A DNA stretch of 61,720 nt, filler included, from Hausera hauseri (taxonomy: Eukaryota), in the NCBI GenBank assembly GCA_046269625.1. It is 9 parts of 9 records of this genome, joined end to end, with 100 filler letters (N's around TTAATTAATTAA, not from the genome) between each part and the next. Parts side by side here need not be neighbours in the genome. Positions count along the whole stretch, not along the records: positions 55,416 to 61,720 come from JBJURY010114987.1; 8 more parts are not named here. One strand, 5' to 3'. The notes beneath the pieces were generated by a model. It was given only the letters and a program-made list of their open reading frames with translations, searched no databases and was not told the DNA's origin. Positions 5,270-61,720 of this stretch are shown here, in pieces. Position numbers and translations under genes: made by a program. Position 1 is the stretch's first letter; each line of letters opens with the position of its first letter.

Positions 5270-5656
<387 letters not shown>

Positions 5657-24656: not shown

Positions 24657-25493
24657 TAATAAATTTTAACCCGTGTACATCTGATATTAATATCGTCGGT
24701 GTGGATTGTTCTATTACATCTTCCCTTGATCTGGTATTAGTATGTAAATTGCTCGAATAACGCTTCCCAGTGGTCTCATTGAACTTTAACTCTTTGATTT
24801 TGATGAAATTGCAATCTTTCTTGGAGGGTGGCTTCCATACGATAACCGAACTTCGGAACGTACAAGCACCATTATGAATATGACATTTCTGATTTTCGGT
24901 GAATAGTTTGGTAACGCTATGAAACATCGCTTTTAAGGATCTTAACTCGGTTTTATAAAAATCTACGACTACTATTCCTCCTTCTTTTCCTTTCCCTATG
25001 TCATATTCTCCTCCGACGCAGTAACCAGTGTGCATGTTTTATTTTCCAACTGCTCTACTTATTTTTCCTTCTTGGGCTTCCAACTCCATACCGTCCCAAA
25101 CCATTTTACCGGTTATCCAGGCTCCTAAACAGTGTTGCCTATCTACGTTCATTTGGATCATGGGTGTAGTTGGTTTGATTATTAAAGAATGGTCGTGCAT
25201 ATTACCACAATGAAGTATTCTGCGGGATCTGCGTATCATGCATTCCACTGCATCCATTGCAATTAATTCGCGCTGTTGATATATAATATATTTTTTTCTA
25301 TTGTCTCGAGCTTATGCGGTCTCGCATCCTCACATGTTTCTAAGTCCATCAAGGAATATTTCTGACCCACCTTGAATTTGTCACAGTCGTATATGGAGAC
25401 TGCTCCTATCTGTTTTACTAACATCATTATTGTTAGGAAGTTGATTAACCAGCTGGATTCGTTTCCTTTCTTCGGGGAGATATTTCGTACCAT
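24657..25493 (-). pseudogene. Chuvirus-like envelope glycoprotein, N-terminal part
   Basis: Signal-like WLINFLTIMMLVKQIGA then VSIYDC..SLMDLETC, ECMIRRSRRILHCGNMHDHSLI, C.F....IVWKPP..DC. Confidence 0.75.
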
Positions 25494-25499
25494 ATCATC

Positions 25500-28400
25500 T
25501 AAATTACTGGTCCCTTTGCATTGTCCACTTTTCGAATAATTTCGTACATTTTATTTCTTTAGGTACCTTTTTCGCAGCTTTTCTAGCTAACCCAATTGTC
25601 TTGTTGAATTCATTTTCCCGGCGAGGGTTAGTTCTTACGGCTAAATATATCAACACCTTCCTTAATTCTTCCATCGTATTGTCTGTCGTGATTCTATCAA
25701 TTACTCTTTCATCAGGGAGGGTGCTTTTAGATAAATTGAATCGCGAAGTCTTCATCGTTCGGGCTATGCTATATATGAGTCTCTCTTTCTCGGATAATAT
25801 GTCGCCTTGAAGTCCGGTATAATTGACAATCCTTATTAAATCTTTCATTAGCTCAATTAATTCTTCGTTATCTAAACTAGGGGTTGGTATTGATAGTTGT
25901 CTCAGTTCCCTTATCAGGTCTGCATTATAGTCTATTACTTTCATTTTTCTTGGCCTTCCGACCGGTCGTTTCGGTTTCATCGGTAGTAAGGTTTCGCTTA
26001 GGGAGGGCTAGGTTTCTATTGTATTGCAGTTTATCATCATCCGTCTTCAAATATTCGAAGTACATTCGGCATCCTCAATACCCATGATTCTTCCGACGCA
26101 ATGCTCTGTATGCGCCTTCCTCATTGCTTCATCTTTGGTTTGCTCCCTAACAATTATTGCTATTATTCGATTTTCTTCGCGGGGTATAATCCCCACGTCT
26201 ATTAAGGATTCTAACTCATCTAAAATCTTGCCTCTGAAATAAAGTTGGTAGTTAACTCCTTCCTTGCCATATTTATCCATTCGGATGATACTTTCACTTT
26301 AATTTCCGTTTCAGGTTTGTTTCTCAATCGTTTAGCGTATTCTCTTATTAGAAGCTTGGGGACCGCTCTGTATGCGGTGTTTTCACTGGACAGCTTAGTC
26401 AAGGTTGGGATCAATTTCCTTAATCTATCTTCACTTATGTTTATTTTCACTACACTGCTCAGTTCCTTCTCAGCTAGTGTAGGATCAAGTAGCATTTGTA
26501 TGTCAAATTTCGTTTTCTGGGTACCAATGGGTGACTCAGATTTGTATAGGAGTTCTTTGACTCTGCTCGTTTAAACCTTGGAGGTATTCATCCCACTCGG
26601 CATCATTATATGCATCAGGTAATTCGCATTTCATTACTGCTGCGTGTTCTACTTGGACTCTTTCACGTATTTCTCTTATTTGCGGTTGCAATGTTTTCAC
26701 TATGGATACTCTAAATCCGTCTCCGTTTCCGCAAGCTTGTTGCATCAATGTTATTATTCAGCACATTTCTTCTGGTTGTATCAAGGCTTTCTCTTGGTAG
26801 CTGGTCAACTCCGCGATTCTGTCTCTTTGCCATCTCTGTATGAATTCTGTTTTGTCGTTCATTTCAGATTCCGTAAAGGAATACTTGTTTTTGTAGACTT
26901 CTGCTTCTCTCAATAATTCGCTTAGTTCGCGCTGTCTTTTCTCGGAGCGTAACCGGGTTTCTTTTATCAAACGTATGCGATGTATCAGTCGTCTGGCTAC
27001 TGTTTCTTCAATTCTTGCCATTTCTGTTAATAGTATGATTAATTTATGTGTTTGGTTTAATACTTCGTGTCCGGATCTATTGCGTCTATTAGCCTGCCTA
27101 TGAACTTGGCTTCGTCGCTCGTCAAATGAAGATCCTTCCTAATTTCCGTTAGTTCGGTATGGCAATGTAGATTGAAACCTGGTGTCCATTCGGCTGGATT
27201 CTGTAAATTTTGTAATGTTTGTGCCAGGGCGATTCGGTGATCGTTACATACTTCTAATGTTTCAATTTCCTGTGCGGATATTTCCTTCAGCGGTTTCTGC
27301 ATTAGGCCCTGTATCCCTTCCCAACGGATGTTCGCTAGACTTCGCTGAAGATCACTTAGTTTGTTTCTTTTTCGATCGATTTCCTTTCCCTCAATAACAC
27401 TATATATCTCTGTTAGTGTTGTTTGATCTTGATTACTACTCATAAATTCGAGATCTCGAAATGATTCGAATTTAATTCGCAATTTTGCTTCACCTTCCAT
27501 TGTGCCGATATCCAGAAACATTTCTTCTAATTGGTGTCTCATTATAGTCTCAACCACAGCGAATTCTCTTAGTCTTTCATTCATTATTTCTGCTATGGAA
27601 GGTAACAAGTCTATCCACTTCCTTATTTGTTTGGTTAACGCTGGTTTAGTGTAAATTATTTCGTCTAGCGTCCCAAGAGCTTCCTTTAGTTCATGATCAG
27701 GGCCCCTTACAAATTCCATGATATGTTTAATATAGTTGAATCCTTCTTTATACTCCTCTAGTTTAAGAAGACAAGCGCATATTATTCTCTGTGCTTCTGC
27801 TTTTTAGGGTGAACTACACCGCTCCTACAGTTGTTGACTTTGGTTCGTATTTCATTTTCTTTTTCAGTACCTATTTTTAAATCTAGATACCTCCGAGGGT
27901 TATCCTTTATCAGGTTGCACATTGCTATTAACTGGGAAATGTTCATTGGGTCTATGCCTAATGTTTCTAATTCGGCCTCTGTTAGTTCCTGCACTGGCTT
28001 GATATGACGATAATAAATTATCGCTTCTTCGATCCCATATACCAATCTTTTTAAATTGCGTATTACACGTTTCCGTTTTGGGTTCTGTTTTAGTGCCTTT
28101 AGTAGTCCTTGTGCTTGGTTTACTTCATCGAGAAACGGCTCGTATCTATTACCCAGTATTTTCGTAAAATCGATCTCACTCTTCATCCACAGTTCTAATT
28201 TATTTTGCCAACTGTTTATTAAATCTTGCGGCATTTGCTCATCTGTTGAAGACTTTGGAGATTCTAATTTAGTCTTCCGGGATCATTCAATGCCTCTCTT
28301 ATTTCAATTAGTTCATTTGCATTTTTCCGAGATTTTCTGATCTTTCCAAACTCAATGGGTGTTTCTTCTTCTGATTCCTCTTCACTAGGCAGTAATGGGT

Positions 28401-28900
28401 ATATTTCATTAATTTCATCAATATTTGAAATACTTATTGCTTCCTGAACGTCTTGGATTATAACAGGAGTATGTAACTCTGTTTCATCTCTTAAAACGAT
28501 AATGAAGTCTTCCGCTTTTTCTAAATCTTTTGTAATAGGGGATAGTGAACGAGTTCGTCACCTTCTCCTAAGTGAAAGGCTTCTACCCCTATTTTTCGTT
28601 ATTTTGACTATTAGTAGGCCAATGAATTCGCTGTCGACCTCGTCTGTAGTTTTGTCCTTCTCTTGGGACTCGACCTCGGTCTCTGCGTCCAGATCCACGC
28701 TTGAAGACTTAGTCGGCCTTTCCTCTTTCGCTGCTTGATTTAGGTTTCTTTTCCTGGCCATATTAGTGTTTCGGAGTGCTATAGCATTTTCGTATTCCGT
28801 TTTTGTTTCTCTTAACCCACGGTAAACTAGCATTAGCTGCAAATTTTCTTCGTACTCTTTCCTGGCCTTGATTATTTGTGGATTATTAGATTCACCCATA
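25500..28900 (-). pseudogene. ORF X: long Glu/Lys/Arg-rich helical region of unknown function with a ubiquitin-like segment and AT-hook; frameshifted
   Basis: Consecutive same-strand ORF fragments, each with a homologous segment in the same order at 56450-59920. Confidence 0.7.
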
Positions 28901-30300
28901 TTTTTATATGCCTTCGTAGATCTTGCATTTCGATAATCATGTTTATATCCCCTCGTTTTCCATATATACGTTCCAAATTATCCTTTATCGTGCTAGCCTT
29001 AGTAGTCTCTGAAAATGATACGCTTCGCGGATTAGGAAATGATCTAGCTATATGTCCTTCCTTGCCACATGAATAACAAATCAGATTCTCGTCTCGGCCG
29101 ATCCTTTGTCGTCCGTCTTCGTTCACTGGTGATTTGGGTCTGCCTGTTATTTTGTTTTGAATGGGTTGAGCTTTATTTCTATTTTCGAAACTTCGACAAT
29201 CTATATATCGGTTCTTGTTACCTCGGTCATTATTTTGGCTTCTGTCCGGATTATAACTTGTTTTGTATGTGTTCCTATTATCGCCAAAGTTTCTATTATC
29301 ATATCTCTTACTGCGATTAGTGGCATTCTGAGCTCTATTCTCATAGCCTCGGTCTTTATTATTATCATTAGATATTCTATTGTTTCGGTTTCTATCCCGA
29401 TTATCGCGATCATTATTTTGCTCATATCTATCACTCTGTCTAATGTATCTATCTAGTGCCATTTCTAAGTTCTGCGCTAACTGTAATGCAGTATCAAAAT
29501 TGTTTGGTCGAGCTAAAATTAGTTGTTTAACTAAGTCTCTGGACCATATACCATATTAACTGAGTTGTCATTTTGACATCTAAATCCGGTGGACTAGCCT
29601 TCTATGCCGCTTCGTTTTCCGCGCCTTTCTTTGCCTTTGCCACATTAGCTATCCTTAACATGCTCACGTAACTATTAGCAAGCTTCTTTAGTGCGAATGC
29701 AAATTGATTGACCGACTTACCCTTTTGTTGCGTTCTGTTTTGGAAGGCCATAAGCTTTTGTTGTAGGGTCACCGCTGGCAACAATTTACGATTCATGGAT
29801 CCTACTACGGCGGACCATGATTTCTTCTCGTCATTGGTGATTTCACTATAGGCGTATGCAGCCAGATTTTTTAAGTATAATGACAGTCGTTTAATCATAA
29901 CTTCGGGCGCAAGACTGGAACCTTCTGCGTGCAATTAATAAGTGCTTAAAAAATCATTTAACCCATCCGGGTCACAGTCATATGCCGTTATGTTCAAAAA
30001 ATCGAACGTAAAAATATCAAGTTTCTGTGCTATAGCGGGGTTGTCTGCTACCATCTTTATTTTATTCGGTTTATATGCTTTATGTCTTTTAGGAGGAGCT
30101 TTGAATTCTTTAACGAAGGTTAATTCAGTGTGGGATAAACAATGCTTGTCTATTGCCTTGCATTTAGTATAGAGTTTAATCCGCGTTTCCCTTTGATTAA
30201 GTTTCTCTATACCGTTTACTAATAAGTTTTGACACGAGTTGATAATCTCAATGTTTACTCTCGGATTAATCTTTACTTAATTCCCCTCTAACCACTTATG
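28900..30300 (-). pseudogene. Gag (capsid-like region, Asn/Arg-rich spacer, CCHC knuckle), frameshifted
   Basis: AYDCDPDGLNDF, LSLYLKNLAAYAYSEI, RTQQKGKSVNQFAFALKKLA (retrotransposon gag Q..ESV..F pattern), CYSCGKEGHIARS[F] at 29037-29078. Confidence 0.8.
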
Positions 30301-30416
30301 ATCCCAAGTTTAGACTCTTAACTCGTATTGTATAACAATTATTTGATGTATATTACGCTATTCGGCCGTATGTCTTTAATTGACTCTCGAAAGTACTGTC
30401 TAGCGAGGTACAAACT

Positions 30417-30434
30417 ATCCTGCTAGGGTCGCCA
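30417..30434 (-). promoter_or_regulatory. Primer-binding site TGGCGACCCTAGCAGGAT (tRNA-Arg-like)
   Basis: TGG start right after the LTR end; resembles the complement of tRNA-Arg 3' ends (...GGTCG-CCA). Confidence 0.75.
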
Positions 30435-30436
30435 AA

Positions 30437-30811
30437 TGTTATAGTTGGGGTGACCCTTATCGTCTCACACTGTAACAATAATTAAAGTCGATTTAAAAGG
30501 TTTTCTAAGCAGGTTAGAACTACTCGTGCTCGAATAGTTGGCTTGTACCCTAAGAGTTATCAGATACGTGAAGTGATGATGGTAGTGCTTGCAATGACAA
30601 AATGCTTGCCTCAATTTACCAATTCTTGTCCTAGCTATAGATTTCACGTTGATTTTACCCTTAGAGTAGTCAAATCGTCGTTAAGAGACGATGCGAAACT
30701 ATATAGGGATTTTAACAAAAGAAATTCAAATAACCTTTATTACTGCAAAATGACTACAAAAATTCAAGACAATCAATCAACGAATAAGTTGAGTTCAGAT
30801 CACTTGTAATA
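30437..30811 (-). repeat. Partial 5' LTR (R/U5) of copy A
   Basis: Ends in ...ACTATAACA two nt before the PBS; AATAAA at 30736-30741 (minus); alignable by eye with 55416-55752. Confidence 0.75.
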
Positions 30812-35193: not shown

Positions 35194-35508
35194 NNNNNNN
35201 NNNNNNNNNNNNNNNNNNNNNNNNNNNNNNNNNNNNNTTAATTAATTAANNNNNNNNNNNNNNNNNNNNNNNNNNNNNNNNNNNNNNNNNNNNTATTAGT
35301 AATAATTAATTAAATGTGCAGCCAAAATGTACTTGATTTTGTTGAAATATATATTTATATCAACAATAGATTTATTCGGAATTAACGTTGTGTAAATAGA
35401 AAATAGGTGCAGGATAGCCCTCGTGGTAACTGAACAACCACACGAACTCACAGCGAGAAAAGTTTCACTAGCGCAACTTCCATAAATAAAATGTTAACAA
35501 AAACCAAA

Positions 35509-36110
35509 ACAGAACCAACAATCCTTAAAGATTGTAATGCAAGTTTAGAAGAACCAATGTTTAGAAGTAGTGAAACAGATGGGGTAAGATTGCCAAATGG
35601 AGGTATTACTGCAGCTCCAAATAAACTAACACAAACAAATCTCGCAAAAGGGATTACCGATGATAAGTTTCGTCAAAGGGCATATATAGGCATAAGGAAA
35701 TTAAAGCCTTTAGACAATTTCTCGCTTTTCCGCGACAGCGGATACACAAATTAAATCGAGCCATAGACTCCGTACTAAATGATACTCGATATCAAGCTAA
35801 ATGGGAATCATTTCTTGGTGTAAACAATTACCAGCGAGTAACCACAGAAATATTGTACAAAATTTGGGAAGATTTTTAATTTTTGACAAGCCGAATCTGG
35901 ATTTTTAGCAATCTATTTCCTATTACAAATAATTAAGGCCGTCATCCAAGCAGTAATATATGGCAATGAAATATGTACATTGACCGGATTTTCGTGTAAA
36001 ATATTGACCTCAATCATAACGTCTTTTGCAAAGTTTTTGAAAGCCTACGAAGAAAATAGATGGAAATCGGACGTAAAACGTCATGTCGGTTATCATAATC
36101 GTAAATGAAA
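35509..36110 (+). pseudogene. C-terminal part of the chuvirus-like glycoprotein, including membrane anchor region
   Basis: PTILKDC...PMFR.SETD.V.LPNGG; GIYRHKEIKAFRQFLAFP; FLAIYFLLQIIKAVIQAVIYG..ICTLTGFS; matches copy C. Confidence 0.8.
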
Positions 36111-36697
36111 AGAAACACCTATGTTCTTGTACAAGCGAAAATTTACAAAATCTAATACTCGAAGAAATAATTCAGATGATGACGAGCCTAAAGGAGGAGA
36201 AGTACTTTTAAGAACAGACAGACGTAAGTCGTAATCCGTCAGTAAAGCACCATTGCCTATGATATCCCCTACTTCTCCAGTCTATGAAGAATGTGACAAA
36301 CGGTCAATGAGCTCTTATCAGACAGAAATCTATAAAAAGACAATTAGTTTGGACGACCGCTACGAAGGAACGAGACGCTATGGAGTCATACTAAAAATGT
36401 GTTATCGACAGCCCATGGATGACCCCAGAATATTGTATTCCCCGAGAGAACCTTGGAATATAGAAACTAGATTGCCTGTCTGGGAAAATCCAAGGTTAAA
36501 AACCTTCCAAAATATAGAACCACACACTAACAATCGAGAACCATTAACTGAACATCAAAAACAATAAATTATATCCAAACGGAGAATTAAGACAATTATC
36601 AGAAAGCACAGTATCCTCCCCGGAAATTTGAATCAACGGACATAAAATATCGGCGACTAAACGCCCAAAAGTTGCATAAAACTGTTTTTGAACAGTA

Positions 36698-39600
36698 ATG
36701 GAAGGGAGACCCTTCTCCAAAATCATTATTGAAGACTGGGAAGTTTATGCGTTAATCGATACAGGTTCTGAGATGTCGTATATTAAAAACGATTCTATAC
36801 CTCAAACTCTAGGAGGACAGTTATACCAACCATCTACAAAGGATCCAGGAAGTACAGGAGCTTTTGGCCAAATGTTAAAACCCATGTTCAAATGGGACCC
36901 AGAAGTTCAAATAGTTAGACAGTTTTTCCGTCACGAATTTGAAGTTATGGAACAATTAACTGACGACGTAGTTCTAGGGTGTACTCTACTCAAGAGACTA
37001 CCAAATATAGCGATTGACTTGCAGACAGGAAAATTAATAGAAATCAGACCAAATAAAAGCGTAAGAAACTCTAAGGATAGAAAATTTGGAGAGGTGTGTA
37101 TACCAGTAGATGAAAATATTCCACCGAGAAAAGATAATAATTTACGCGCAAATTCAACAAGATGACGATCAACCAGTATATTTCGAATCAAAAGAGACAT
37201 TAAATCCGAATATAATACTTAGTAATATACTGACCAGAGTGCACTCCGGTCTTGTACCGATCAGAATAGCAAATAATGCACCGACTTCCATCAAGCTTTA
37301 TGTTTATACCACTCTAGGAAATATTTATAGAGGGTCGTCCATAACTATTAAAGAAAAGCCTTATAAGTATGCCGAATTCTCACTTCATGTCGAAGCTATG
37401 TTTTCCCCGGAATCTTACTGTCGATTCTATGAATTATTATGTCGCTATAAATGGATTATTGCTAAGGACGATGAGGATATTGGTAGGACGAAAGCATTAA
37501 AATTAACTATCCCGCTTAAAAAAGCCTAGTTCAAACGAAGAAATAAATCTTGAGGATCAGAAGATATCGAAATGGTATCCTCCACCTGATTCACTAAAAC
37601 CCGAGATAACAAAGGCGTTCAAACGGATGCTTAATCCGATATAATTAAGCCGAGCTATAGATCTTGGTATTCACCAATCTTCATGGTTAAAAAGAAAGGT
37701 ACTACGAAACATCGATTCTGCATTGACTACAGAGCGTTAAATAATCCTATGATGAAAGATTTCCCATTGCCATCAGTAAAAGAGGCTCTAGACAAACTCT
37801 CCAGAGAAAAATGGTTTACCACTCTGGATTTACAATCGGGATATTGACAGGTACAAATCGAGGACGAAGACCGATATAAAACAGCGTTCAAGATACATGA
37901 TGGTGTTTATGAATTTAATGTCATGCCATTCGGTATTACTACCGGACCAGCCATATTTAAAAGACTAATGAATAAAATGTTGGTGTAATAAGACCATGCT
38001 TTTGCATATTTAGACAATGTAATGATAGCGTCAGAGGAACACNNNNNNNNNNCAAAATATCAGATTGCGTGGAACCACAAAATCGGAAAAAGCTAAGACA
38101 CTGGCTACGTTTATGTGGATATTATGACACTTATGTACCGAACAACTCGAAAATAAATGTACCGTTATATCACCTTCTTAAAAAAGGAATTAAATGGAAA
38201 TGGACAGACGTCTAACTGAAAGCTTTCGACGATATGAAAAAGATATTAACAAGTGCACCAGTTTTTCAATACACAGACTTTAATTTACCTTTTATAATCA
38301 AGACAGATGCCAGTAAAAAAGATATTGGCCATAAATTAGTGCAGAAAGGAGAAGATGAAGAATTAAAATACCCAAATGCTTATGTAGGACGATCCTTGAA
38401 GAAGGCCCAGAAAAATTATTCTGCTACCAAATTAGAAACTCTAGCCGTAAAATTTGCGCTTCGACACTTCAACGTTTACGTGTACGGGCAGAAAATTGTA
38501 ATTGTCAGTGATCACAAAGCCGTTACGACTTTAAAAGGCCCACAAATAACCCAACATGCAGACTTAACAGATGGATCGAAGAAATCTCTAGATACAATAT
38601 TGAATTCTAGTATAAGCCAGGAAATAAACATGTAGATGCCGATGCACTATAAAGACTAAAGACCAAACAAGTGCAATCACTGTAATGAAGAAAAGTCAGC
38701 CTGAAGAAATAATAGATCGCCAACGTGCCTTAACGACGGATGAAGCGATTAAAATCTCAACCGAACAAAGAAAGAATAGAATTATCCAACAGATTATAGA
38801 ATTTGCTGAGAAGGACATAGTACCAAAAGGACGAAAATTATAAAAATATCTACGTAGACACGGACACAAATATTGCGTTTTGAACAACAAGGGTCTCGAA
38901 AACCTTCTATATTATGAGCGAAAAGAAAAAAAGCTGATAATTATTCCGAAAAACTTACGAATTAAGGTTTTTATGTCGGAACATGACTCATACTTAGCCG
39001 GACACATGTAGTGGAAAAAGATGTTACAGATAATACTGAATAAATACTTTCGGCTCAGTATCTATATTGATGTGAAAAATTGAGTAAATGCTTGTGAAGT
39101 ATATGCCACTAAACAAAAAAGACAAAGAATTATATAGCAAAATTAAAACCAGTCAATGGATATCGTAGGACCGCTTCCTACGACCCACAGAAACAATAAA
39201 TATAGATTAACTTGTATTGATCGACTAACTCATTTTGTCGAATTGATAACGTTAATTGATCAAAAGGCGGAAACTTTGGCAGAAGCTGTAGTAAGAATCA
39301 TTTGCCGATATGGACCTCCAGACCAAATATTAACAGATCGAGGAAGAAATTTTATAAGTGAACTATTTGAGAAGATTATCAAAATATTTGAAATCGAATG
39401 GGTAACTAATATCGCGTATCACCCTCAGTGTAATGGAATGGTTAAACGAATGAATGCAATTGTCATACGCATACTATCAACAGTAGTAGCTAAGGACCAA
39501 AAAGATTGGGACAAATTTTTAGAAGGAAATCAGTTTGCAATCAATACCACGCCACATCTATCAACAGGATTTACACCATATTTTATGATGTATGGACGCG

Positions 39601-39990
39601 AAGATATGTTGCGAACAGACTTAGGAATGACGCCATACACAGTCAATCCCGAAGATTTAGAACAAAACTTCGCAGAAGTATTACAAACGCGACTACAAAA
39701 ATGTTGAGAAATCACCAAGGAGTTATCCCAAGAATATCAAGAACAGTTCAAAAAGTAATACGATGAGAAAGTGAAACCGCATGATTTAGAACCAGGAAAT
39801 TGGGTTTATGTACATTATCCAGTTGCCAAGAAAGGCACGTTATTAAAACTGACTCGTACAGGCACAGGACCGTACGAAGTGACTAGAGTCACGCTAACTA
39901 CCAAGTACATTAACAAAAATGGGAAGGAAGAAGTCTTATCAATACAAAGAGTTGTTAAGACGGATATACGTCCCAATAAACGTTACAATT
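36698..39990 (+). pseudogene. pol: Ty3/Gypsy pol: aspartic protease, RT, RNase H, integrase with GPY/F module; many stops and frameshifts
   Basis: ALIDTGSEMSYI; SPIFMVKKK..RFCIDYRALN..PLP..LDLQSGY*Q..KTAF..YEFNVMPFG..AYLDN; TDAS..YSATKLETLAV..SDHK; HDSYLAGH..C; DIVGPLP..TDRGRNF..YHPQCNG; GPYEV. Confidence 0.95.
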
Positions 39991-41438
39991 TACATCAACG
40001 CGAGATAAAAACTTTCTCAATAATTGGTAGACCGTTATCATATCTTCAGATAGTTTTAGCACGATCACTAATTGCTTCTAATATTCCAAGAACACAAACT
40101 CAATGGTGGGACGATGAAACCATGTTAGAAGACTTATATGGAATTCGGAAGAGCGGATCAAAGCCGAAAAGTATTATAACGAAAAAGTAAACAACGGCCG
40201 AAGAGATCCAAAAACGAGAAGACACTATTTTGTTACAATCAATGAAGGTTCATTACTTTTCGCCCGACTCTCTGTGTGTTGGATTTAAAACTTAGAGACC
40301 ATATCACGATTTCGGAAGATTTCAAGTTGTACTATATGATGTGACAACAAAATAAGTAAAAAATTGCGATTTTTAACCCGGAGATTATACACAGTGCTGT
40401 GACAGATTTTGGACATATTTACATCCTTACTTATCGACTATACTTACTAGACTCATCAGAAGTCTATATCAAAGTAAACTCACAACTTCAATTGGTCATT
40501 CTCACTTGGCCTAGACGATTCGAAGTGAAACCCAAAGAAAGGCTACAATTCACTGACCCAAATATAAGGCTGTTAGATGAAAACATCAAAAGGATCTCAG
40601 TAAACCAGGGAAAACAATGCATCTAAGTAGATGGTTGAACAGGATTAACTCTTAGTCAAAAAATTAGTATTGTTTTCGAAGCAGTAAACGGAAAAGCTCC
40701 GAACATGAAATACTGTTCTCTTCATGCCGGTGTGTAACACCCATGTTGTAAGCTATCAGTAAACCAAGAATTCAAAATAAAATTTTATCTATATGAAGTA
40801 CGACGGGATAAACCGAGCAAACATTTGCAAACCTATTACCCATAGAATAGAATATGGCGGATTCCAGTATAAACGACAACCGAAAAACCGACAACTCGAG
40901 TTAGTGCTAATACCAGACCCGTTATATCAAGCAGTGTGCCTAAAAGAGAATTTGGAAGTGTACATACTAAATATTCGGCACATCGATTTAAAATTGTGTT
41001 CTTTGTAGAAAAACTAAATTACGACATACATATAAGCTGTCGAACAACGTATAATAATCAAATTGGAAAACTACTTAAGAACACTCAGAAGACGGAATGC
41101 AATTTGTTAAAACCACAATCCGATTACATAGTACAAGTATATGCAAAGAATAAACAAAATCAATTACATTGCGTACCTTAAACGAAATTCGTGAAGAATC
41201 GCATGTATACGAAAACATAGACGACGAAGTCACAACTCCATTCACCATACAAGCCCAAATGAGATTAACCGCTTTACCAATCATATCGATTTTCGTACTA
41301 CCAACGTTTGTTCTCATTATATTAATTGCGATTTTTCGGTTAGTTGCCAAAAATTGTCAGTCTAAGCGTCCTAAAACTATAGAATTGGAAATTGGGGAAT
41401 TGGCACCCCCTACTGACCCGTATGGTAAAATAACCTGA
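39990..41438 (+). pseudogene. Putative second type-I membrane protein with an FN3-like domain downstream of integrase; fragmented
   Basis: Hydrophobic signal-like FSIIGRPLSYLQIVLARSLIA after IN; CNLLKPQSDYIVQVYAKN (41098-41151); TM LTALPIISIFVLPTFVLIILIAIF; short tail ending at 41438. Confidence 0.55.
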
Positions 41439-41519
41439 CAACTACAGAGCGGGTTATTCTATCATCTAACTAAGAATTTGTTTCATTTTAAGACCACCCT
41501 TTGTTGTAAGATTAACCCT

Positions 41520-41976
41520 TACTGTTTATTTCTTAGACTGATGAGTAAAGAGAGAGTTATTAAAACGGGTACTGGACGACCTATGATCGACGAATCGCGA
41601 TCTATCCAAGAACGAGAACGATGTAGTATCGATAAATCACCAAAACGCCGACTTAGTATCGACGAGTTTCTGCAGAATTACGCTACCGTCTTTCTTCCAA
41701 ATTCAAAATCCATATATCTAGAAATTCATAACGAATGGCATGAGAAAACCTTCATGAAGTATGATCAGACCAGCATAATTCCTAATAATTTAAAGGGTAT
41801 AACGGAGGAAAATAGGATTGTTTACCTTTACGCCATGAGAAAAGAAAAGGATGCCCGAGCATACTCACTCAAACAGATGATCAAGTACGAACATCATCAG
41901 AATATTTATATCCACCTGGTAGATGGTGATATATACTATCGGTTCAAAAATCAAGAAGGCAATAGGGACTTAGTAC
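41520..41976 (+). CDS. Hypothetical ORF, open to the contig end, probably part of the retroelement
   Basis: Over 150 uninterrupted codons from MSKERVIK; same strand and composition as the element; no motif recognised. Confidence 0.45.
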
Positions 41977-44435: not shown

Positions 44436-45452
44436 ATGGAAATTAATGCAAAAAATGCTAATTTAATCATTGAAAAGTTGAGAAGGAACAATTATAAGAG
44501 CACGGATATACACAGATTACTGACAATGGCCTGGGGTGATGAGGTGACAAGCGTTAGACAAGTTCAAATAATATCGAAAGAATATGAAGACGGTAATTGA
44601 GTTGATTTTAAAAGGAAGCCAGGCAGCGGAAAAAAAGACGAAAATCACAAAAAAGTAGTACGTTTAGTTGAGCAACAAATGCAGCAAAACCATAAGTTGA
44701 CTACAAAAGAATTGGCGGAGATTGCCGGTGTATCTAACTACCTTGTATACAAAATATTAACGAAGGGTTTGATGTGGAAATGTTTGTCGGACAAGTGGGT
44801 GCCGCATACTTTAACGGACGGACATAAATCTGAACGCGTGTAGTGTTGTGAGAACTTGTTGCAGACTTTCACCAGGCACAGAAATAGTAAACGATACTTA
44901 ATTGTAACCTACGAGAAGTGGTTCTACGGCAAACCTTTAGGTAACTTTGTTACCAGAAAATCTTGGGTTCCACCTGCTGGAGACGGATGCGAAGTTGCTA
45001 AGAGGATGACTGTTGAAATGAAATGTTTTGTTCTGGTTGCTGTAAGTTTTGGAAGTCTCTATCAGTTTAAGGTTTTAAATCGGTGTGAAACAGTAAACTT
45101 TGAGTTATGAGCTTAGAGTGCACAGAAGATCCGTGTCATTGGATACGTGCATCCTTATGCACGACAATGCTACGCCTCATACATCTCTCTTTGCCACACA
45201 ATTCCTTCAAGACAAAGGCTGCACCTTGATTCGACAACCACCATACTCTCCAGATGTCAGCATTTGTGACCGCATGGTCTTCCGAAAGGTAGAAATGAAA
45301 AGATCCGGAATAACATTTCATGAAGCGAACGATGTCGTAGATTTTCTTCATGAGGAATTTCAGACTTTAACTGAACAGGTGATGAATCATGAATTTGACA
45401 TGCTTACCTTCACTTACGAAATGTTATAGACAATAATGGTAATTACGTTTAA
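44436..45452 (+). mobile_element. Decayed mariner-type (DD34D-like) transposase
   Basis: KWVPHTLT, IVTYEKWFY, LMHDNATPHTS, QPPYSPDVSICD; stops and frameshifts; TIRs not identified. Confidence 0.88.
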
Positions 45453-46387: not shown

Positions 46388-49300
46388 CAAGATCTAAAGC
46401 ATGGTTCAACAATACATGTAATATTCCGACTAAGAGGGGGAAGTGAATAGCTGTAGACGAACTCGAGGATCGGATTGCAGAGAGGCGAAAACATAAATGA
46501 CTTGGCAACCATTCGACGAAAATTGATGGAAATGAATTTGAACGAGCAAGAATATAGTCTGTTCCAACAAAGGTACGAGAAAACCTTTTCAGAGCTACAG
46601 AAGAATTTGGGGATGTTAGCAGCTGCTGAAAGGAAATTAAAAAGAAAAGAAAATGTTACCCTACTGGAAAATGAAACGGAAAAATTGGATGAACAAAACG
46701 AGAAAATCAATGCGATTATTTATAGAAGAAGTCTACGGGAAAGTAAACCAGCAATTAATGTAACAAGAGGTACGGATAGTAGTGAAAAGAAAAAGTCATA
46801 TTGCCGAAATTACAAAAATTGGAACTCCCGAAATTCGGCAGTATTGTCACAGAATTCGACAAGTGGAAGAGAACGTTCGACACTTGCGTTCATAAAACAC
46901 AAATGTCCGATATTCATAAACAATTGCAATTAAATCAATGTCTTTACGGAGAACCGAAGAGGTTAATTGAGAATTTTGATCTATCAGAAGAGGGCTATAA
47001 AGCCGCAATGGAAAAACTTAAATCTTATTACGGAGGGGAACAACGGTGTTACGCCGCCTTTTTGACCGAGGTGATGGGCTTCAAACCAATTAGAGAAGAA
47101 GATATCGTAGGTCTAGATCGGTTTTTCGCATTGATAGATGGTATAGTAGTAAGGTTACAAAATTTGGGGAGGAAAGAAGAGTTAGGTGGAGGACTGTTGT
47201 ATCAAAGTTTAATGGAAAAACTCCCAGAGTCTATAGTATTGTTATGGGAAAGAAATGTTGCTGAAAAAAGGTCAAATCGAACAGTTGAGCAGTTAAAATT
47301 ATGGGTAGAGTTGGAAGCAAGTGTCCGAGGAAATACAATCGAAAGAGTCAGGCATAAATACCTTTAATCCAGGAAGAGATTATGAGTCTAATCGGATATA
47401 TGATGAAAATAAGTTGATAGTTCGAAAACGATTTCTTACTCATAATAAAAATCATATACCTTCTAAAGGGCATGAGTTTCAAAGAAAATCGCAAAGAAGT
47501 TTTTACGTAGACAAAGATGTCAACAGGAAGGAGGCACCAATTCGTAGCAAAACGGAAAAAGATAACAGTATTAAATCAAGGAATAAAACCGAAAACCAAA
47601 TATGCTGGGAGTTTGAGAAAGGTGGAGATTGCAAATTTGGAAAGAAATGTAAATATCTGCATATTAGTGAGGGAAATAGTAAAATGCAAGTTTGTAAGTA
47701 TTATCTGAAATGAAATTTCAAATATGGAGAAAATGTCGTTATGCTCATGAACCGCCGTCAAAGAAAAATACATCTAAAAACCAACAAAGAACATTTTACA
47801 CTATACAAGGTGATGAAGGTGAATGCGGAGATAAAGCTACGGAAGCACCAATCAACTCTTATATAACTCGGCGATCAGAAGAGACTCCAACAGGAAATAA
47901 GATAGCCTTACGTACTGTGGATGTGTGGTTGGAGAACGGAGAGCGAAAAGTAAAAGTGTGTATGTTATTGGACGACGCGAGCATGGAATGTTTTGCAAAA
48001 CGCTCTGTTGTTGAACAATTACAATTAGACGGCAGTCAGGAAAGTGTATGTTATGGTGGTAGGTGGGGAAACAACAAAGTCAATAATGGGACGGGTAAAA
48101 ATGAATCTACGAAGTAAGAATGGAAAAGTTAACATCCTATTTGAGGCATTAGTTCTCCATTATCCAACTGGGAAAATGATGGCTGTGAATTGAAAAATTG
48201 AGAAGAACAAATGGCCACATTTGAGAAATATAAAGTTTGCCGTTCAAAAATCGCCGAAATCAGTCAATAGAATAATCGGTGCGAACTACATGCATCTACA
48301 TAGATCTATAAAAGAAATAGCGGGAAATATAAACGAACCGGTAGCCAGATTGACTCCACTCGGATGGACGTGCGTTGGGATAATCGGAGATGAAAAGAAA
48401 AAGGCAAGAACCAATTTCATTAGAACATTCTGGAGTACAACCGATGAAGTACAAGAAGATTGGAACAGACTATGGGAAGCAGAACAGGGATTCCTGTGTT
48501 GAATAGCTCGGATGTCAAATTATTAAAGAAAGTGACGAGCGGAATAAAATATGAAAAAGAAAGGTTTGATGTTAAGTTACCTCGGAAGACAGAGAAACAT
48601 CCATACGTCAGTAATCTTGATTCATCATGGATGGCGAAAAGAAGATTGAATCTATTAATAAAGAAACTGGATAAAGATATTACAGTGAAAGAGGAGTATA
48701 ATAAGGTCGCGATACCACAAAAATTCGGATAGTATTTGACGCAGCTGCAAAGAGTAAAGGAAAATGTCTAAATGACTTCTTGGAGGTCGGCCCAAAATTA
48801 CAACTTGACGTAGTTGACATTTTACTCCGAATGCGTCGCAACATGTATGTTTTAATCTGTGATATACATGAAATGTTTCTCCAAATTTTAGTAGATCCAA
48901 CAGATAAAAAATACTTACGTTTTTTATAGAAAAAGAATGATACGAATTCAACAGATTGGTGTACGGATTAAACAGTTCTCCTTTTTCAGCGCAGTTGGTG
49001 TCCAGATTAAACGTGGAAAAATTTGAAAATGTGTATCCGAAAGCAACAGAAACTATAAAACACTCTACGTATATGGACGAATGCATAGATTCAGCTCCAA
49101 CAGAAGAATAGATAGTTGAATTGTAGCACGGATTAAATGTGATATGGAACAATGCAGGAATGGCTCCACACAAATGGACAACGAACTCAGAACAACTTAT
49201 CGCCGATATCCCATGTGACAAAAGATCGAAGGAGTATAGCGTATCAGAGAAAAACACATTGGCCACAAAGACGTTGGGAATGAAATGGAAGGTAAAGGAG

Positions 49301-49775
49301 GACAAATACGTATTTTATAAAAGAGATGCTAGCGAACAAACAATAACGAAAAGGACCTTACTAAGCGCAGTCCTTAAAATGTACGATCCCCTGGGATTTT
49401 TAAGTTGCTATACTATAATCGGAAAAATGATAATGCAAGAATTGTGGATCGGGAACTATGAATGGGATCAAAAACTCCCGGACCAAATATCAAACAGGAT
49501 AAAATCATGGATGGAGGAAGCTCATCTACTAGACGAAATAGGAATTGAAATGTACCTAAGATTAGACAAAGATGAGAACTGGGAACTACATATCTTTTGT
49601 GACGCCTCGAGACTAGGTTACGGCGCAGTGGGTTATCAGAACAAGGAAAAAGAATGGGAACTTTTTCAAAACATTGGTAGTTGCTAAAGCGAAAGTAGAT
49701 CCAGTCAAATCGATAGCGATACCAAGATTGGAGTTATTGGCGGCTTGTGTGGGAGTCAAACTGAATGAAAGACGA
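46388..49775 (+). mobile_element. BEL/Pao LTR retrotransposon gag-pol fragment, decayed, truncated before integrase
   Basis: LPKLQKLELPKF..EFDKW..F..K..L..CL.GEPKRLI (DUF1759-like Gag); MLLDDAS protease; PVARLTPLGW; YMDE RT motif; TKTLGMKW, TKRTLLS..YDPLGFL; LHIFCDAS..YGAV; AKAKVDP..IPRLELLAA. Confidence 0.92.
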
Positions 49776-55415: not shown

Positions 55416-55752
55416 ACTTGCCATCTTATTCTTATCGATTGATATTCTTGCAATTGTAACGTACGGTATTATTTAGTTGTTAATAAACTTGTATTTAAAA
55501 TTCTTGATAGCTTTTTCGTCGCTCCTTACGAGGGACTGGTACCACATTAAGTATTAAAATTTCGTATAAAATCTAGTTAAGTCGAGATCCATTTAAACTC
55601 TGCAAAGGACACGCACGCAGTTCGTACATCATAAATTAGTGCAAACATTCTAACGAGAATGTTAGAACGTACCTGCCAAATAAATATCTCTAATTGAAAT
55701 TAATTCATTGTTATAGTTGGGTGTTGGATAGGGCCACCTTCAACTACTAACA
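55416..55752 (+). repeat. Partial 5' LTR (R/U5) of copy C
   Basis: AATAAA at 55482-55487; ends ...CTAACA two nt before the PBS. Confidence 0.75.
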
Positions 55753-55754
55753 AT

Positions 55755-55772
55755 TGGCGACCCTAAAAGGAC
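55755..55772 (+). promoter_or_regulatory. Primer-binding site TGGCGACCCTAAAAGGAC (tRNA-Arg-like)
   Basis: Same position and near-identical sequence to the copy A PBS. Confidence 0.75.
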
Positions 55773-55899
55773 AGTTTGTACTTGCTAGACTTGACTTTTA
55801 GCGAAAAGTAACGACATATCAGCGATCAGCGCTACCACATCGAATAATTTANNNNNNNNNNGTGATCTTGAAATTCGGGATTGATAAGAAACCTTAGTA

Positions 55900-58800
55900 T
55901 TATAACGACATACTATTGAATTCAGAACGAATATTGACAGGCATAAGTCGGACATTAGTTTAAATTTAGTCCCAGACGATAAAGAAAATATTAACATACG
56001 CGAAATACGCAACAAAGTATATACATAAGGTAAGACGTTGAGCAGACGCACCTTATCTGAAACGAATTTAGCTAATATTAAAACTAATAATTTAGACGCT
56101 GTCGAACAACTTATTGAATTTATAATCCCCGATAAACGAATTAAAACTCGTAAGCTAATTAAGCAAAGTCTAATAAATGTAGAAAACATGATTGAGAATC
56201 AAGCAGTTCCGCAGAAGTTGGATATCTTTAAATTTGACTCTGAATCTGCCGGCGTACGACGGAGACCCGGACGGATTTAATGAATTCTTAAGAACTTATA
56301 AGTTGCATGCAGAAAGTGCTGGACTTGCATGTAACGTAATGATTAAACGTTTATCATTATATTTGAAAAATTTGGCCGCTGATGCTCATAGTGAACTCAC
56401 TGATGATGAGAAGAAATCCTGGTCCTCTCTCGTAGGGTCATGTCCAAATCCACAAAGCGTTTCGTTTGTTGAGCCTAGTAAAACTAATGTAGTTAGGAAT
56501 AAAAATTTAGAAGCCGTTTATGGCATCCGTAAAGACAAAGGTATGATCATAGACATACAAGATTTACGACATCTCCTAAAAGCTCAATCTGATACCAGTG
56601 ATCTAAAAGTCTTAATGGCCAAGAATGGGTATGAGCACAAGTTACGATTGTTAGAAGTATATCATGGCCTACGCAAACCAGAAACGGAATACGAACTTTC
56701 TATTGCCCCGCCAAAGCTTACCGATATGGCATGTAAAAAGAATGTTCGAGCGGTTCATAAAGAAGCAGGGGAAACGGAAAATCCTGAGACTCCGGATGAA
56801 GTAGACTTAGACGCAGAAGCGGAATATATGATAGAAAAAGTAGACAAAACCATAGAAGTTGACGAAGAAAAAGAATTTATGGAACCACTAATACTCAAAA
56901 TTACGAAGAATAGAGGCCGTAGTCCATCATTGAAGTGGAAACGTAAAGATCGTTCACAATCTTCAATGAATAAAGAAAAGTCGCGCAGGGCAAAAGAAAC
57001 CGAAAATGCTCTAGAAAGCGACGTAGAGTTCAATTTGAATACCCCGGAAACCGGGCTAGTTACCCTTGTCGGAATAGAAAAATTAATAAATGAAATAAAT
57101 GATATGTCGATTGCTTATTAGTGAAGAAGAGGCAGACCAAAGTGAGGAATTCGATCGTAAAAAGTGAAAAATCGGACGTTCATGGAAAAACACTGATGAA
57201 TTAAAATGAGGATTATTTGTCACGATCCAGACGAACTGCAGCAGAATCTAGAAAAACTTAAAGAAATGAGCGAACAAGTAGACATTTCCAGTAAGAAGCA
57301 GCAGTTCGTACAGAGATTGTACAAGAAAATGAAGTTAAGGAAAGTTAATTGAAGCTATGGATCTAGAACAACCTGCGGAGGTATCCCCGAACACAATAGC
57401 GAAAGAAAACATGAATTAGAAATGTGGATGAAAAGTGGAGTAAAATTACCGGAAGCATAAGACAAAACCACTGAAGACATTGAAGTAAAAATAAATAAAG
57501 CTCAAACATTATTGACTACGTTAAAAGCCAACCGAAAACTAAAGAGAGCAACACGTAACCTAGAACGTGTCATGAATGAAATTAGATTCGAAGTAGTTGA
57601 ACGACTCAAAGAAAAACCGGCCCAGGAAAGAAATGAAACTGACTTAGACATGCTGGGTATATACTCAATAGATATTCCGCTCTTAGTGGAAATGATAAAA
57701 ATCGCTTCCACTGCATCAAAACAATATACTAGCCTGGAAAATCGTATTAAGATTGAAACCGAAAAACTGTCGCAAATATACAGCTTGAGGAATATGATTA
57801 TGAATGTGAATAATGAGGAAACACAAAACGTAATTAAGGCTTGTATCCTTGAACTCGAAGAGTACAAAGATGAGTTTAATTATGCCAAATGATTATTGGT
57901 TTTATTAAATGTCCGGATGATGAATGGGAAGACGCCTACAAAATACTAGATGAAGCAATACTGGCAAAACCCATGATTGCTAATCAGTTAATGAATGATC
58001 CCGACTAATAATGAGACTGAGTGAACTAGTAGAGTGCCGTATAAAAGAATTTCTCGAAAGTGAGCCTACATTACAGAAGCAATTATAAGAAAATGCACGA
58101 AACCTAGATACAGTGAGAGCGGAAATAGACATTAGAACTCAATTTGATGCATTACGCCAATTACAATTTATGAAAACCAAACAAGAAATGACGATACTGG
58201 ACAACATATATAAAATGATCGAAGAAACGAACTTTACAGAGAAGTAGAACATGATCTGTAACTTCCATCCGAGATTAAAGAATGTTCGCTTGGAAGGAAT
58301 CCAGCATTTGACATCTAAACATATCAATGAGATCTCAATTCGGGATGTCGAAACTTTAAATGTTTGTGCGGAACATCGATCAGATATACAAGAGGCAATA
58401 GAATTACTACACAAACCCCAAGAGTGGATGATCGTAACAGATCAAAGGTGTCATACGAACTGACCAAAATAAGAAATGACCAGCACCTCAGCTTTGATGA
58501 CGTGAAGTTTGTAAAGAGGTTGCTCGATGTTATAGATCCAGACTCGAAAATTATTCATGAGATGTATGAATTAGCATTACTAATGGTGGAAATGGCAGAA
58601 ATTAGTGATGAAAAAATAAGACAATTGATGCCTCAGATACGGCGAGTCGAAGAAACTTTTATTAAAACCAAACAGAGAGCGATAAGATTAGACGACCTGG
58701 TTAAAGAAAGACATTGTTTTCGAACAACACAAATGAATAAAATGCAACGGAAATTTAGCGAATTAAGAGGATCAACACGGGATGCGGAAGCGGCTCAGCT

Positions 58801-59920
58801 ACTGGACAGGCTAACACTTGATTACAGACCTCCAGATAGTGAAAACGAACCAGAATGGGATGCATACTTAGACGCAATGATTGCTGAGAATCCGAAAACC
58901 ACGGGATCGGAGATTTAGTGTGGAAATGCTTTTAGATTCAGCGCAAACTGAAAAGGACTTAATTAAGTTAATTAATGTAAATCTTACCGAATCTCAATTA
59001 AAACAGCTAGTTTCTACCCTAACTTCTAATAAAGGAATATGCTAAAGTATTAAGGACCACATCCGAATACACAGTTAAAGTAAAAATATCGTCTGACCGG
59101 ATGGACGAGAAAGAGCAAGAGTATACTAAGCGCTCTGTCGTAAGAGACGTGGTACAGTGGCTAATGAATAATGGTTGCGCAAGTGAAATGGACTATAAAC
59201 TTTACTTTAGCCGTTGAATATTAGACGAACTGGAACAATTAATTGACGTCAGAATTATCCCAGGTGAAACGAATCGAATAGTATTGACGGTCGCTACGGA
59301 GGAGACAAAAAAGAGGCCACAAGGACGGCTAAAGCAGATCATTGTGCAGGACGAATCGTGGGAGTTCGAGATATAGCAATGTACTTTAAATACTTGCAAA
59401 CGGACGAAGGCAAAGAACAATTTGATAAGAATTTAGTGCCATCTAGCGAGACCGCACCAGTTATAGCAAATCAGAAGCGTCTTGTTGGTAGACCGCGACA
59501 GGCTCGAGAAGAGACTGATTTTAATGGGATTTAATTAGGGATTTGAGGCAAATGTCCATACCAACACTTAGTCCAGAAAACGAAGAGCTGAATGAACTTA
59601 TGAAAAACTTGATACGCATAGTAAACCACTCTAGTCTCTGTGGCGATATATTAGATGAAAAAGAGAAATCTATAAACCATGCAGCCAAGACAATGAGTAA
59701 TTTACGATGTAAATCATCTAGGAGCACATTAAGCAACGAATCGGTGATCGAAAAGATAACGGTAGAAAACACTATAAAAGAGTTAAGAAAGGTGTGACTA
59801 TATTGAGCCATTAAAACAAACCCTGCCAGAGAAGATGAACTTAACAAGGCCACTAGTCTAGCGCGAAGGGCTGCCAGAAAGCTACCCCGAGACGTAAGCT
59901 GGTCTTTAGTAATAGTAGAT
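55900..59920 (+). pseudogene. Gag (internally deleted) continuing in frame into ORF X
   Basis: PAYDGDPDGFNEFL..LSLYLKNLAADA..W; ORF 56192-57121 runs from Gag into ORF X without a stop; later fragments match copy A. Confidence 0.75.
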
Positions 59921-59928
59921 TCGAAGAT

Positions 59929-61720
59929 ATGTTACGAAATTTAACTGGGAATAATCGGGGAAATGAATCAAACTGGCTAATTAATTTTCTAACTGCGATG
60001 ATGTTAATAAGACAAATAGGAGCGGTTACAATATATGACTGTGCCAAATTCAGACTTGGCCAAAGATATTCATTAATGGATTTGGAAATGTGCGAAAATG
60101 TGAGACCACATAAATTAGAAACAAAAGAAGAAAGATATGTACTGTATCAGCAACGACAGTTAGTCTCATTGGATGAAATAGAATGTATGTTGCGACGATC
60201 TCGCAGTATTTTTCATTGTGGATTAATACACGTACATTCATCTATAATCAAGCCGACGACCCCACTAATTCCAATGAACTTAGAACTCCAGCATTGTAAG
60301 CAGGCTAGAGAGACAGACAGGCTGAAGTTGAACGTCATGGAATTAGAAATGCAGCAAGGGAAAATAATCAGAACATACAAAGTAGCAGCAGGAAGATTAG
60401 ACATGCATACGAGTCACTATAACGGTGCAGAATACGATACTGGAAAGGGATTGCAGTCAAACATAGTGGTTGTGGATTTCTACGAAACCGAGATGCGCAC
60501 ACAAAAAGTGATGTTTCATAGTGTTACTAAGCTCTATACGGAAAACCAAAAGTGATACATCCAAGACAGCACCTGTTCTTTTAGGATTTCAGTAGTAATT
60601 TGAAACCTCCAGACAAGACCGATTGCAATTTCATTAAAATTAAAGAACTGAAGTTTAACGAAACGACAGGAAAACGCTACGTAAGTAATACGGATAAAAA
60701 CTCAAAAATGCGAGAGGATGTAGCGGAACGGCATACACCTACCATATTAATTTCCGATACTCACGGATTAAAGTTTGTGAAGAAAGACGTACTCACAAGG
60801 TGTGATGTATTAATGTACGCCACCAGTTATGAAGCATTCTTTGTAGCTGAAACCGAGGTAAATACCAGAACGTTCAGGCTTGAGACTCAAGATATTCGAA
60901 TTGAAGATTATTTGAAGAATAGAGACGATTATTTCTACTACAAGGGATAGGCCGGAATTACTGAGTTATACCATAAGATGAAAACGGATGACTGTAAACT
61001 AGACTTAGAAGCCATAAGAACCAAACTGGCTTTAATATATGCCAATCCCGAGCTAGCGTCACCAATAATTCCGATAAAAGAAGGCGTTTTTGGACGAGTG
61101 ACGGGAGAAGTTCTGCTGACCTACGAATGCGAGAAGAAGGATGTACCTATTAATGTGGAAGAGAAAAGGTGCATTCAAGAACTTCCAGTGATATATCAGG
61201 ACGTACCGAGATTGGTAACGCCGATTACGACAGTATTACTGGCAAACTCTATATAACCGACGATTCTGAACGATTGTAAGACCAGTTTGGGAGAACCAAT
61301 GTTTAGACATAGCGAAACCGATTGGGTAAGTTTACCGAATGGTGGGATAATTACGCCGCCCACCAAGTTAACAGGAACAAATTTAATAAGCGGAATAATT
61401 GATGATAAGTTTCAAGATGCTGAAGCAAAAGTTACTTATCGGCTAAAAGAAGTAGAGGCATTTAGACAATTTCTCGCTTTCCCACGCCACCGTACGCATG
61501 AATCAAACAGCGCGATGCATACAATACTAGAGGATTCACGTTACCAAGCGAAATGGGAAACGTTACTTGGTGTTAACTACTATCAAAAGGTGACTACTGA
61601 AATATTGTATAAAATTTTGGGAAGGTTTCTGATATTCGGCCGAGCCTCATCAGTATTCCTAGCAATTTATTTCGAAATTCAAATGGTTAAAGCGATAATT
61701 CAAGCGGTAATAAATGGATA
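59929..61720 (+). pseudogene. Chuvirus-like envelope glycoprotein, nearly complete, with a few stops
   Basis: IYDC..SLMDLEMC; LYQQ..IEC.LRRSRSIFHCG..HSSII; GEVLLTYEC..DV..RCIQELPVIY..LVTPIT.VL; DC..PMF; FRQFLAFP; hydrophobic C-terminus FLIFGRASSVFLAIYF. Confidence 0.8.

Follow-up and report, generated by a model that had tools for sequence, protein, structure and literature searches.

A likely ubiquitin-like domain in the gag-env accessory region of a decayed, enveloped Gypsy-type element from Hausera hauseri

The window analysed here, 61,720 nucleotides of Hausera hauseri DNA, consists of nine contigs joined by N-linkers, and its last contig (55416-61720) carries on the plus strand a broken reading frame at 59068-59292 that we propose to encode an integral ubiquitin-like domain. 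We explain this frame as a decayed copy of a conserved segment, likely beta-grasp, in the gag-env accessory region of an enveloped Gypsy-type element, where the domain would serve to dock a partner protein and would not itself be conjugated. As an overall account, a ubiquitin-like docking module in a gag-env accessory region is the best explanation and probably correct.

Self-comparison of the window identified three copies, A, B and C, as pieces of one element family, with the following features:

24657-30500, minus strand: copy A, with gag, region X and the start of env on a contig of its own; broken, 61% identical to copy C
35473-39704, plus strand: copy B, on a third contig, with the env tail and, behind it, protease, RT, RNase H and integrase
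35473-35964, plus strand: env tail of copy B, 70% identical to the env tail of copy C over 463 nt
55690-61720, plus strand: copy C, with gag, region X and env, running off the window
55749-55764, plus strand: likely LTR end (CA) of copy C with a putative primer-binding site for a tRNA; the motif recurs in copy A
55963-56440, plus strand: capsid part of the copy C gag, from self-comparison and the Pfam match of copy A
56441-58918, plus strand: first part of region X in copy C, an acidic stretch and then one that by eye is likely helical or coiled-coil
59478-59501, plus strand: AT-hook-like GRP motif, also at about 25968 in copy A (Pfam AT_hook E 0.086, below cut-off)
59519-59896, plus strand: final block of region X, conserved, with 58-59% identity to copy A
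59950-61720, plus strand: env of class III fusion glycoprotein type (PF24664), broken, with a signal-like stretch from 59974

Stops and frame changes were found in all three copies. By blastn the area of the LTR end and primer site of copy C (55692-55818) matches copy A at 30369-30493. The gag of copy A matches the Pfam families Retrotrans_gag (E 0.015) and zf-CCHC (E 1.3e-4), and the distance from gag start to env is about 4.8 kb in this copy. The copy C gag lacks 757 nt, which in copy A hold the remaining capsid region and the CCHC knuckle; the gap is located at 56436 of copy C, corresponding to 29044-29801 of copy A, and the copy C frame is still open over the joint. In copies A and C gag is separated from env by the roughly 3.5 kb of region X, which is devoid of Pfam family matches. 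The first part of this region, for which the Pfam scan gave no family above cut-off, contains two blocks that are 34-40% identical between copies C and A, and the last block matched neither a Pfam family nor a PDB entry. Env of copies A and C matches PF24664 (E 9e-12, 1e-11 and 7e-10), and the pol of copy B matches RVP, RT_RNaseH and rve, with RT motifs being recognised by eye.

The element order is likely gag-X-env-pol, Gypsy type, as read from the sequences of three contigs, copies A and C giving gag-X-env and copy B giving env tail-pol. The family combines a Gypsy-type gag and a PR-RT-RH-IN pol, as in a GAG-ENV-POL Ty3/gypsy errantivirus, with a gB-type env between gag and pol in this assembled order. 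The reading as a pol-less element was dropped because pol domains are present behind the env tail in copy B. The family is present in many copies, as 7,801 contigs of one sequencing run, which may itself be the source of the window, align on copy C at a sequence identity of at least 80%.

The domain frame and its counterparts in copy A comprise the following features:

59068-59292, plus strand: likely integral ubiquitin-like domain of copy C, broken; based on the 75-codon read, selection and profile tests
59215-59217, plus strand: in-frame TGA at codon 50 of the domain, private to copy C
26152-26256, minus strand: second half of the domain in copy A, with the ubiquitin-like motif and all of the statistical signal
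26283-26312, minus strand: domain strand 1 in copy A, behind which 67 nt are lost and the frame changes

The translation of 59068-59292 agrees exactly with the one quoted in the original prediction, including its single stop, the TGA at codon 50. Another letter is present at this site in 19 contigs that make up 92% of the aligned depth, demonstrating that the TGA is private to copy C. Both pieces quoted for copy A were located as well (26283-26312 and 26152-26256). The stretch of copy A that had been given as an ellipsis, however, is a loss of 67 nt (matching copy C 59094) with a shifted frame, so that strand 2 and/or most of the helix are gone. Due to this loss copy A backs strand 1 and the second half, and neither the helix nor strand 2. 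A skip of 109 nt, resembling the loss in copy A, was observed in one contig of run X1. As anticipated, the Gly-Gly that would characterise a type I modifier is absent after the domain in both copies A and C.

Having located the frame, we asked if it is coding and aligned 90 contigs from run X1 to 59040-59320, among which every indel stayed below 10%. From the 40 listed of 50 variant places we left out the stop site and divided the remaining 39 at a share of 0.75, a threshold of our own choice, into 28 shared and 11 private variants. Sixteen of the 28 shared variants are synonymous in the domain frame, as compared to 7.7 under a null that preserves the type of change (P 0.0004), and the other two frames yielded 5 and 5, whereas among the private variants 2 of 11 are synonymous with 2.4 being expected. 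Based on this excess in the shared and its lack in the private variants, the sequences indicate that the domain frame has been under purifying selection in the family and has decayed neutrally in copy C. At 11 of the 13 positions taken as core from the proposed alignment no amino-acid variant occurs among the 39 listed variants, and the other two stay hydrophobic. The second half of the domain has 64% identity in copies A and C over 33 codons (pN 0.21, pS 0.81); in the same comparison the env blocks reach 61% and 75% and the two upstream region X blocks 34% and 40%. The pN and pS values between the copies, the lack of common indels and the synonymous bias in one frame thus argue that 59068-59292 is coding and not a chance frame. 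As to the type of variant, G to A on the sense strand is common in run X1 over 59040-59320 (18 of 50 places), and over the whole of copy C there are 384 G to A and 339 A to G variants.

The likeness to ubiquitin was examined with directed tests, which were chosen after ubiquitin had already been proposed. With a profile of 94 ubiquitins the second half of copy A ranks first of 2,466 six-frame tiles of the window, at an E of 6.3, and copy C is outside the top 10 tiles. With a profile of 31 archaeal ubiquitin-like domains and 8 ubiquitins the same half is again first of 2,466 (9.3 bits, E 0.18), the next unrelated tile having 5.0 bits (E 4.3) and copy C 2.3 bits. In hhalign a 35-residue piece of copy A gave a score of 19.9 (probability 35%, P 4e-4) that none of 200 shuffles reached. 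An alignment of the two copies gave 15.8 (probability 3%, P 0.013), with all 8 decoy blocks and 149 of 150 shuffles scoring lower, and the comparison with canonical ubiquitins resulted in a probability of 0.8%. The claim that the segment aligns with ubiquitin along its length is not borne out statistically, as the hhalign signal is confined to 22 columns in the second half of copy A and copy C alone, with 10.5 versus a shuffle mean of 9.6, is at chance level. Copy A contains the motif of strands 3-4 and the short helix with hydrophobic core positions, and two residues of the proposed strand 2 are polar where the aligned ubiquitins have hydrophobic ones. The tile scan of region X revealed a single ubiquitin-like site and no tandem second one. 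A candidate for such a tandem domain, seen by eye just upstream (copy A 26322-26570), was rejected because 45 of 100 shuffles equalled its score.

The Atlas search, which is free of a hypothesis, returned ubiquitin/Rad60-SLD in four of the six listed rows with a Pfam family and CLU_N, which we take to be ubiquitin-like, in one, at scores of 0.76-0.78. For the 44-residue part the top three named clusters were PF00240/PF11976 (0.78-0.79), which we treat as a lead, since Atlas scores are below 0.9 and one third of shuffled proteins also yield ten matches of the same clan. Searches with the broken copies as queries gave no Pfam family of the ubiquitin clan (PF00240, PF11976 and others) at E up to 1 or 5, and the PDB sequences yielded no ubiquitin match up to an E of 10. 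No relative of the domain, of the last X block or of env was detected in protein collections by word searches of longer proteins, none was obtained in a scan of 1.84 billion protein representatives, and viral and metagenome contigs contained no related locus.

Structure prediction, which had been suggested as a check together with Foldseek, was carried out with AlphaFold using the natural rows with X at the stop. The longer model has a pLDDT of 36 and strands 1-2 are missing. The domain-only model (E4-9, E17-22, H26-36, E45-47, H54-60, E63-65, E73-75) shows, at a low pLDDT of 49.8, the element order of the beta-grasp (strand, strand, helix, strand, helix, strand, strand). A beta-grasp match was not obtained: with this poor model Foldseek gave nothing at E 0.001 and FAF1-UBX only at rank 33 (E 3.7). 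In a wide fold search the best match was a designed protein (Z 5.2, rmsd 2.8, 73 aligned), the top rows being designed Top7-like and R3H-type folds with Z of at most 5.2, and no ubiquitin-family chain occurred among the best 50 rows.

These data bear on the alternative that the conserved domain, although real, has a fold other than the beta-grasp, and that its second-half motif is a small alpha/beta fold resembling ubiquitin by chance. The missing Pfam, PDB and fold matches, the polar strand 2 and the restriction of the signal to 22 columns of one copy would fit such a domain; however, these 22 columns come out on top in the window and score above all shuffles, Atlas and the predicted element order concur, the planarian Burro elements provide a precedent at this position, and the fold searches relied on poor models, so we regard this alternative as rather unlikely. 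Since the directed profile tests, Atlas, the predicted strand-helix order and the Burro precedent all point in the same direction, an integral, non-conjugated ubiquitin-like (beta-grasp) domain is the most likely reading of the segment, and we hold it with reasonable confidence. The original proposal of an integral domain is thus supported by directed profiles, Atlas and precedent, but was not confirmed by the unbiased family and fold searches.

As to function, region X would be made together with Gag and released by the protease of the element. The domain lies about 680 nt upstream of the signal-like stretch of Env and, as it precedes this stretch, would stay on the cytoplasmic or nuclear side. 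The lack of Gly-Gly and the conserved sequence continuing on both sides suggest that it is neither conjugated nor cut like ubiquitin. From the cargo of the Burro elements one may guess that the partner is a host protein of the ubiquitin/SUMO pathway, a suggestion we make tentatively, and a role in the assembly of the element itself is nearly as likely as such host-pathway docking.

In the latter case the domain would be ubiquitin-like and serve the element, providing Gag, the RNA or the Env leader with a scaffold or partner site in particle assembly, comparable to the integral Ubl domains of coronavirus nsp3. Consistent with this, Gly-Gly is missing, the domain is as conserved as Env, and both copies have a tyrosine at position 44, which is part of the surface patch in ubiquitin, so that canonical ubiquitin readers may not bind. 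The neighbouring cargo of Burro (MATH, BIR, RING, BCL-2), however, suggests host pathways, and as a separate explanation we consider this one possible but not probable. Much less likely is a bolder version of the host-directed role, in which a protein comprising the domain and the AT-hook, as retained Burro-type cargo, would go to chromatin as a SUMO mimic and blunt the SUMO-dependent silencing of transposons; Rad60 SLDs bind Ubc9. If true, compact gag-env-pol elements would encode a transposon anti-silencing factor.

The original prediction had also speculated on processing and budding. The sense frames of gag-X contain no PTAP or PPxY, and the single in-frame YPxL of copy A has no equivalent in copy C, so that no late-domain motif is common to both copies and a substitute recruiting ESCRT is conceivable; the position ahead of the Env signal-like stretch would likewise suit cleavage by a host deubiquitinase, by which the ubiquitin inserts of pestiviruses are cut, but the Gly-Gly required for ubiquitin-style processing is missing in both copies, the frame continues into conserved sequence and the surface patch is altered, rendering a processing or budding signal very improbable. 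We prefer the docking module.

Several further observations were made in the window and in the reference sequences. Downstream of the copy B integrase, about 1.9 kb of coding-like DNA (40095-41975, plus strand) with a hydrophobic stretch at 41259 and no Pfam match may, from its sequence, be a further accessory gene of copy B. The spacer between protease and RT of copy B (37080-37390, plus strand) resembles by eye the dUTPase-like piece of Burro, and a Pfam search of it gave no match. A BEL/Pao relic (46457-49687, plus strand) with DUF1759 and Peptidase_A17 has a CCCH-type zinc finger in gag. Other pieces in the window are:

833-1543, minus strand: Tc5-type transposase piece
5270-5656, minus strand: EML beta-propeller gene piece
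21542-22096, minus strand: MOV-10 helicase piece
45097-45426, plus strand: DDE_3 transposase piece

Among the reference sequences, near-canonical ubiquitin occurs in about 100 prokaryotic genome records (loci L001-L121), many with a signal-peptide-like end before and a tail without Gly-Gly after it (Ruminococcus, Verrucomicrobiota, Flavobacterium and the complete Paenibacillus chromosome L079), and some being polyubiquitin on short contigs that look like contamination (L018, L041, L046). Many archaeal genomes of the sampled phylum (L136-L159) encode ubiquitin-like proteins of about 80 aa ending in Gly-Gly, and some archaeal frames of 1,800-2,100 aa end in a ubiquitin-like domain (L130, L145, L146, L152).

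Finally, we compared the segment and its element with known systems. Integral (type II) ubiquitin-like domains (PF00240, PF11976 Rad60-SLD, UBX) share with it the second-half motif, the predicted order and the lack of Gly-Gly, whereas the segment scores below every curated cut-off, has two loops with two extra residues and a polar strand 2. Anakin, a BEL/Pao element with a chuvirus glycoprotein (PMC7642597), has captured a glycoprotein of the same class as the present env, but it is not a Gypsy element, and its description in the accessible part of that paper includes no ubiquitin-like domain. GAG-ENV-POL errantiviruses with HSV/gB-type Env are reported from Platyhelminthes, Nematoda and Bryozoa, with listed spans of 14.5-18 kb (Chary and Hayashi, PMC13524379); gene order and Env type are alike, and by eye the present Env resembles the Platyhelminthes_C1a rows in the accessible material, which would make a flatworm the probable host. 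As neither 'ubiquitin' nor 'SUMO' occurs in the main text of PMC13524379, the domain is not described there. General background is given in the accessible parts of PMC12440569 and PMC11410931. A literature search for a SUMO-like or ubiquitin-like domain with a gypsy gag polyprotein gave no match, and subscription papers or Repbase entries may describe the domain of this family.

The closest counterpart is Burro, a giant Gypsy-like LTR element of planarians with Gag, a Smc/midasin-like region, MATH, a Ubi2/SUMO-like motif (PF11976) and BCL-2, followed by an Env of mononegavirus-like type, which sits in frame between gag and pol, and then by PR, dUTPase and RT (Arkhipova and Yushenova 2019, PMC6431247). 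The earlier statement that no standard ubiquitin-like module is known in LTR-element polyproteins is contradicted by this motif, and the novelty claim fails because a Ubi2/SUMO-like domain between Gag and Env has been published for Burro elements. The Burro cargo has been suggested to interfere with host apoptosis and ubiquitination (PMC6431247), and the accessible part of PMC13465017 cites a tested anti-apoptotic role for the RING-BIR cargo of Burro1, not for the ubiquitin-like domain. Pfam searches of the scanned region X pieces gave no match to MATH, BIR, RING, ankyrin or BCL-2, the last also being sought after the ubiquitin-like domain; the final X block may hold a diverged BCL-2. As the other cargo of Burro was not found, we do not class the element as Burro proper, which has one in-frame ORF of about 4,900-5,100 aa. 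The present element is also far more compact, the start of gag and env in copy A being about 4.8 kb apart, and has the AT-hook-like motif after the domain. The two domains are likened by description and position. Burro/GYPSM1 and the present element have in common a Gag with retrotrans_gag and CCHC, an accessory region with a Ubi2/SUMO-like motif (a probable one in the present element), a mononegavirus-like fusion glycoprotein and pol. The layout is already published, so the element is a further example and not a new kind, and copy C is dead. If the fold holds, the ubiquitin-like module of Burro persists in a much smaller element without the other cargo of Burro and under selection as strong as that on Env. 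The module would then belong to the core accessory kit of these enveloped elements and offer a small target on which structure and partners could be studied.
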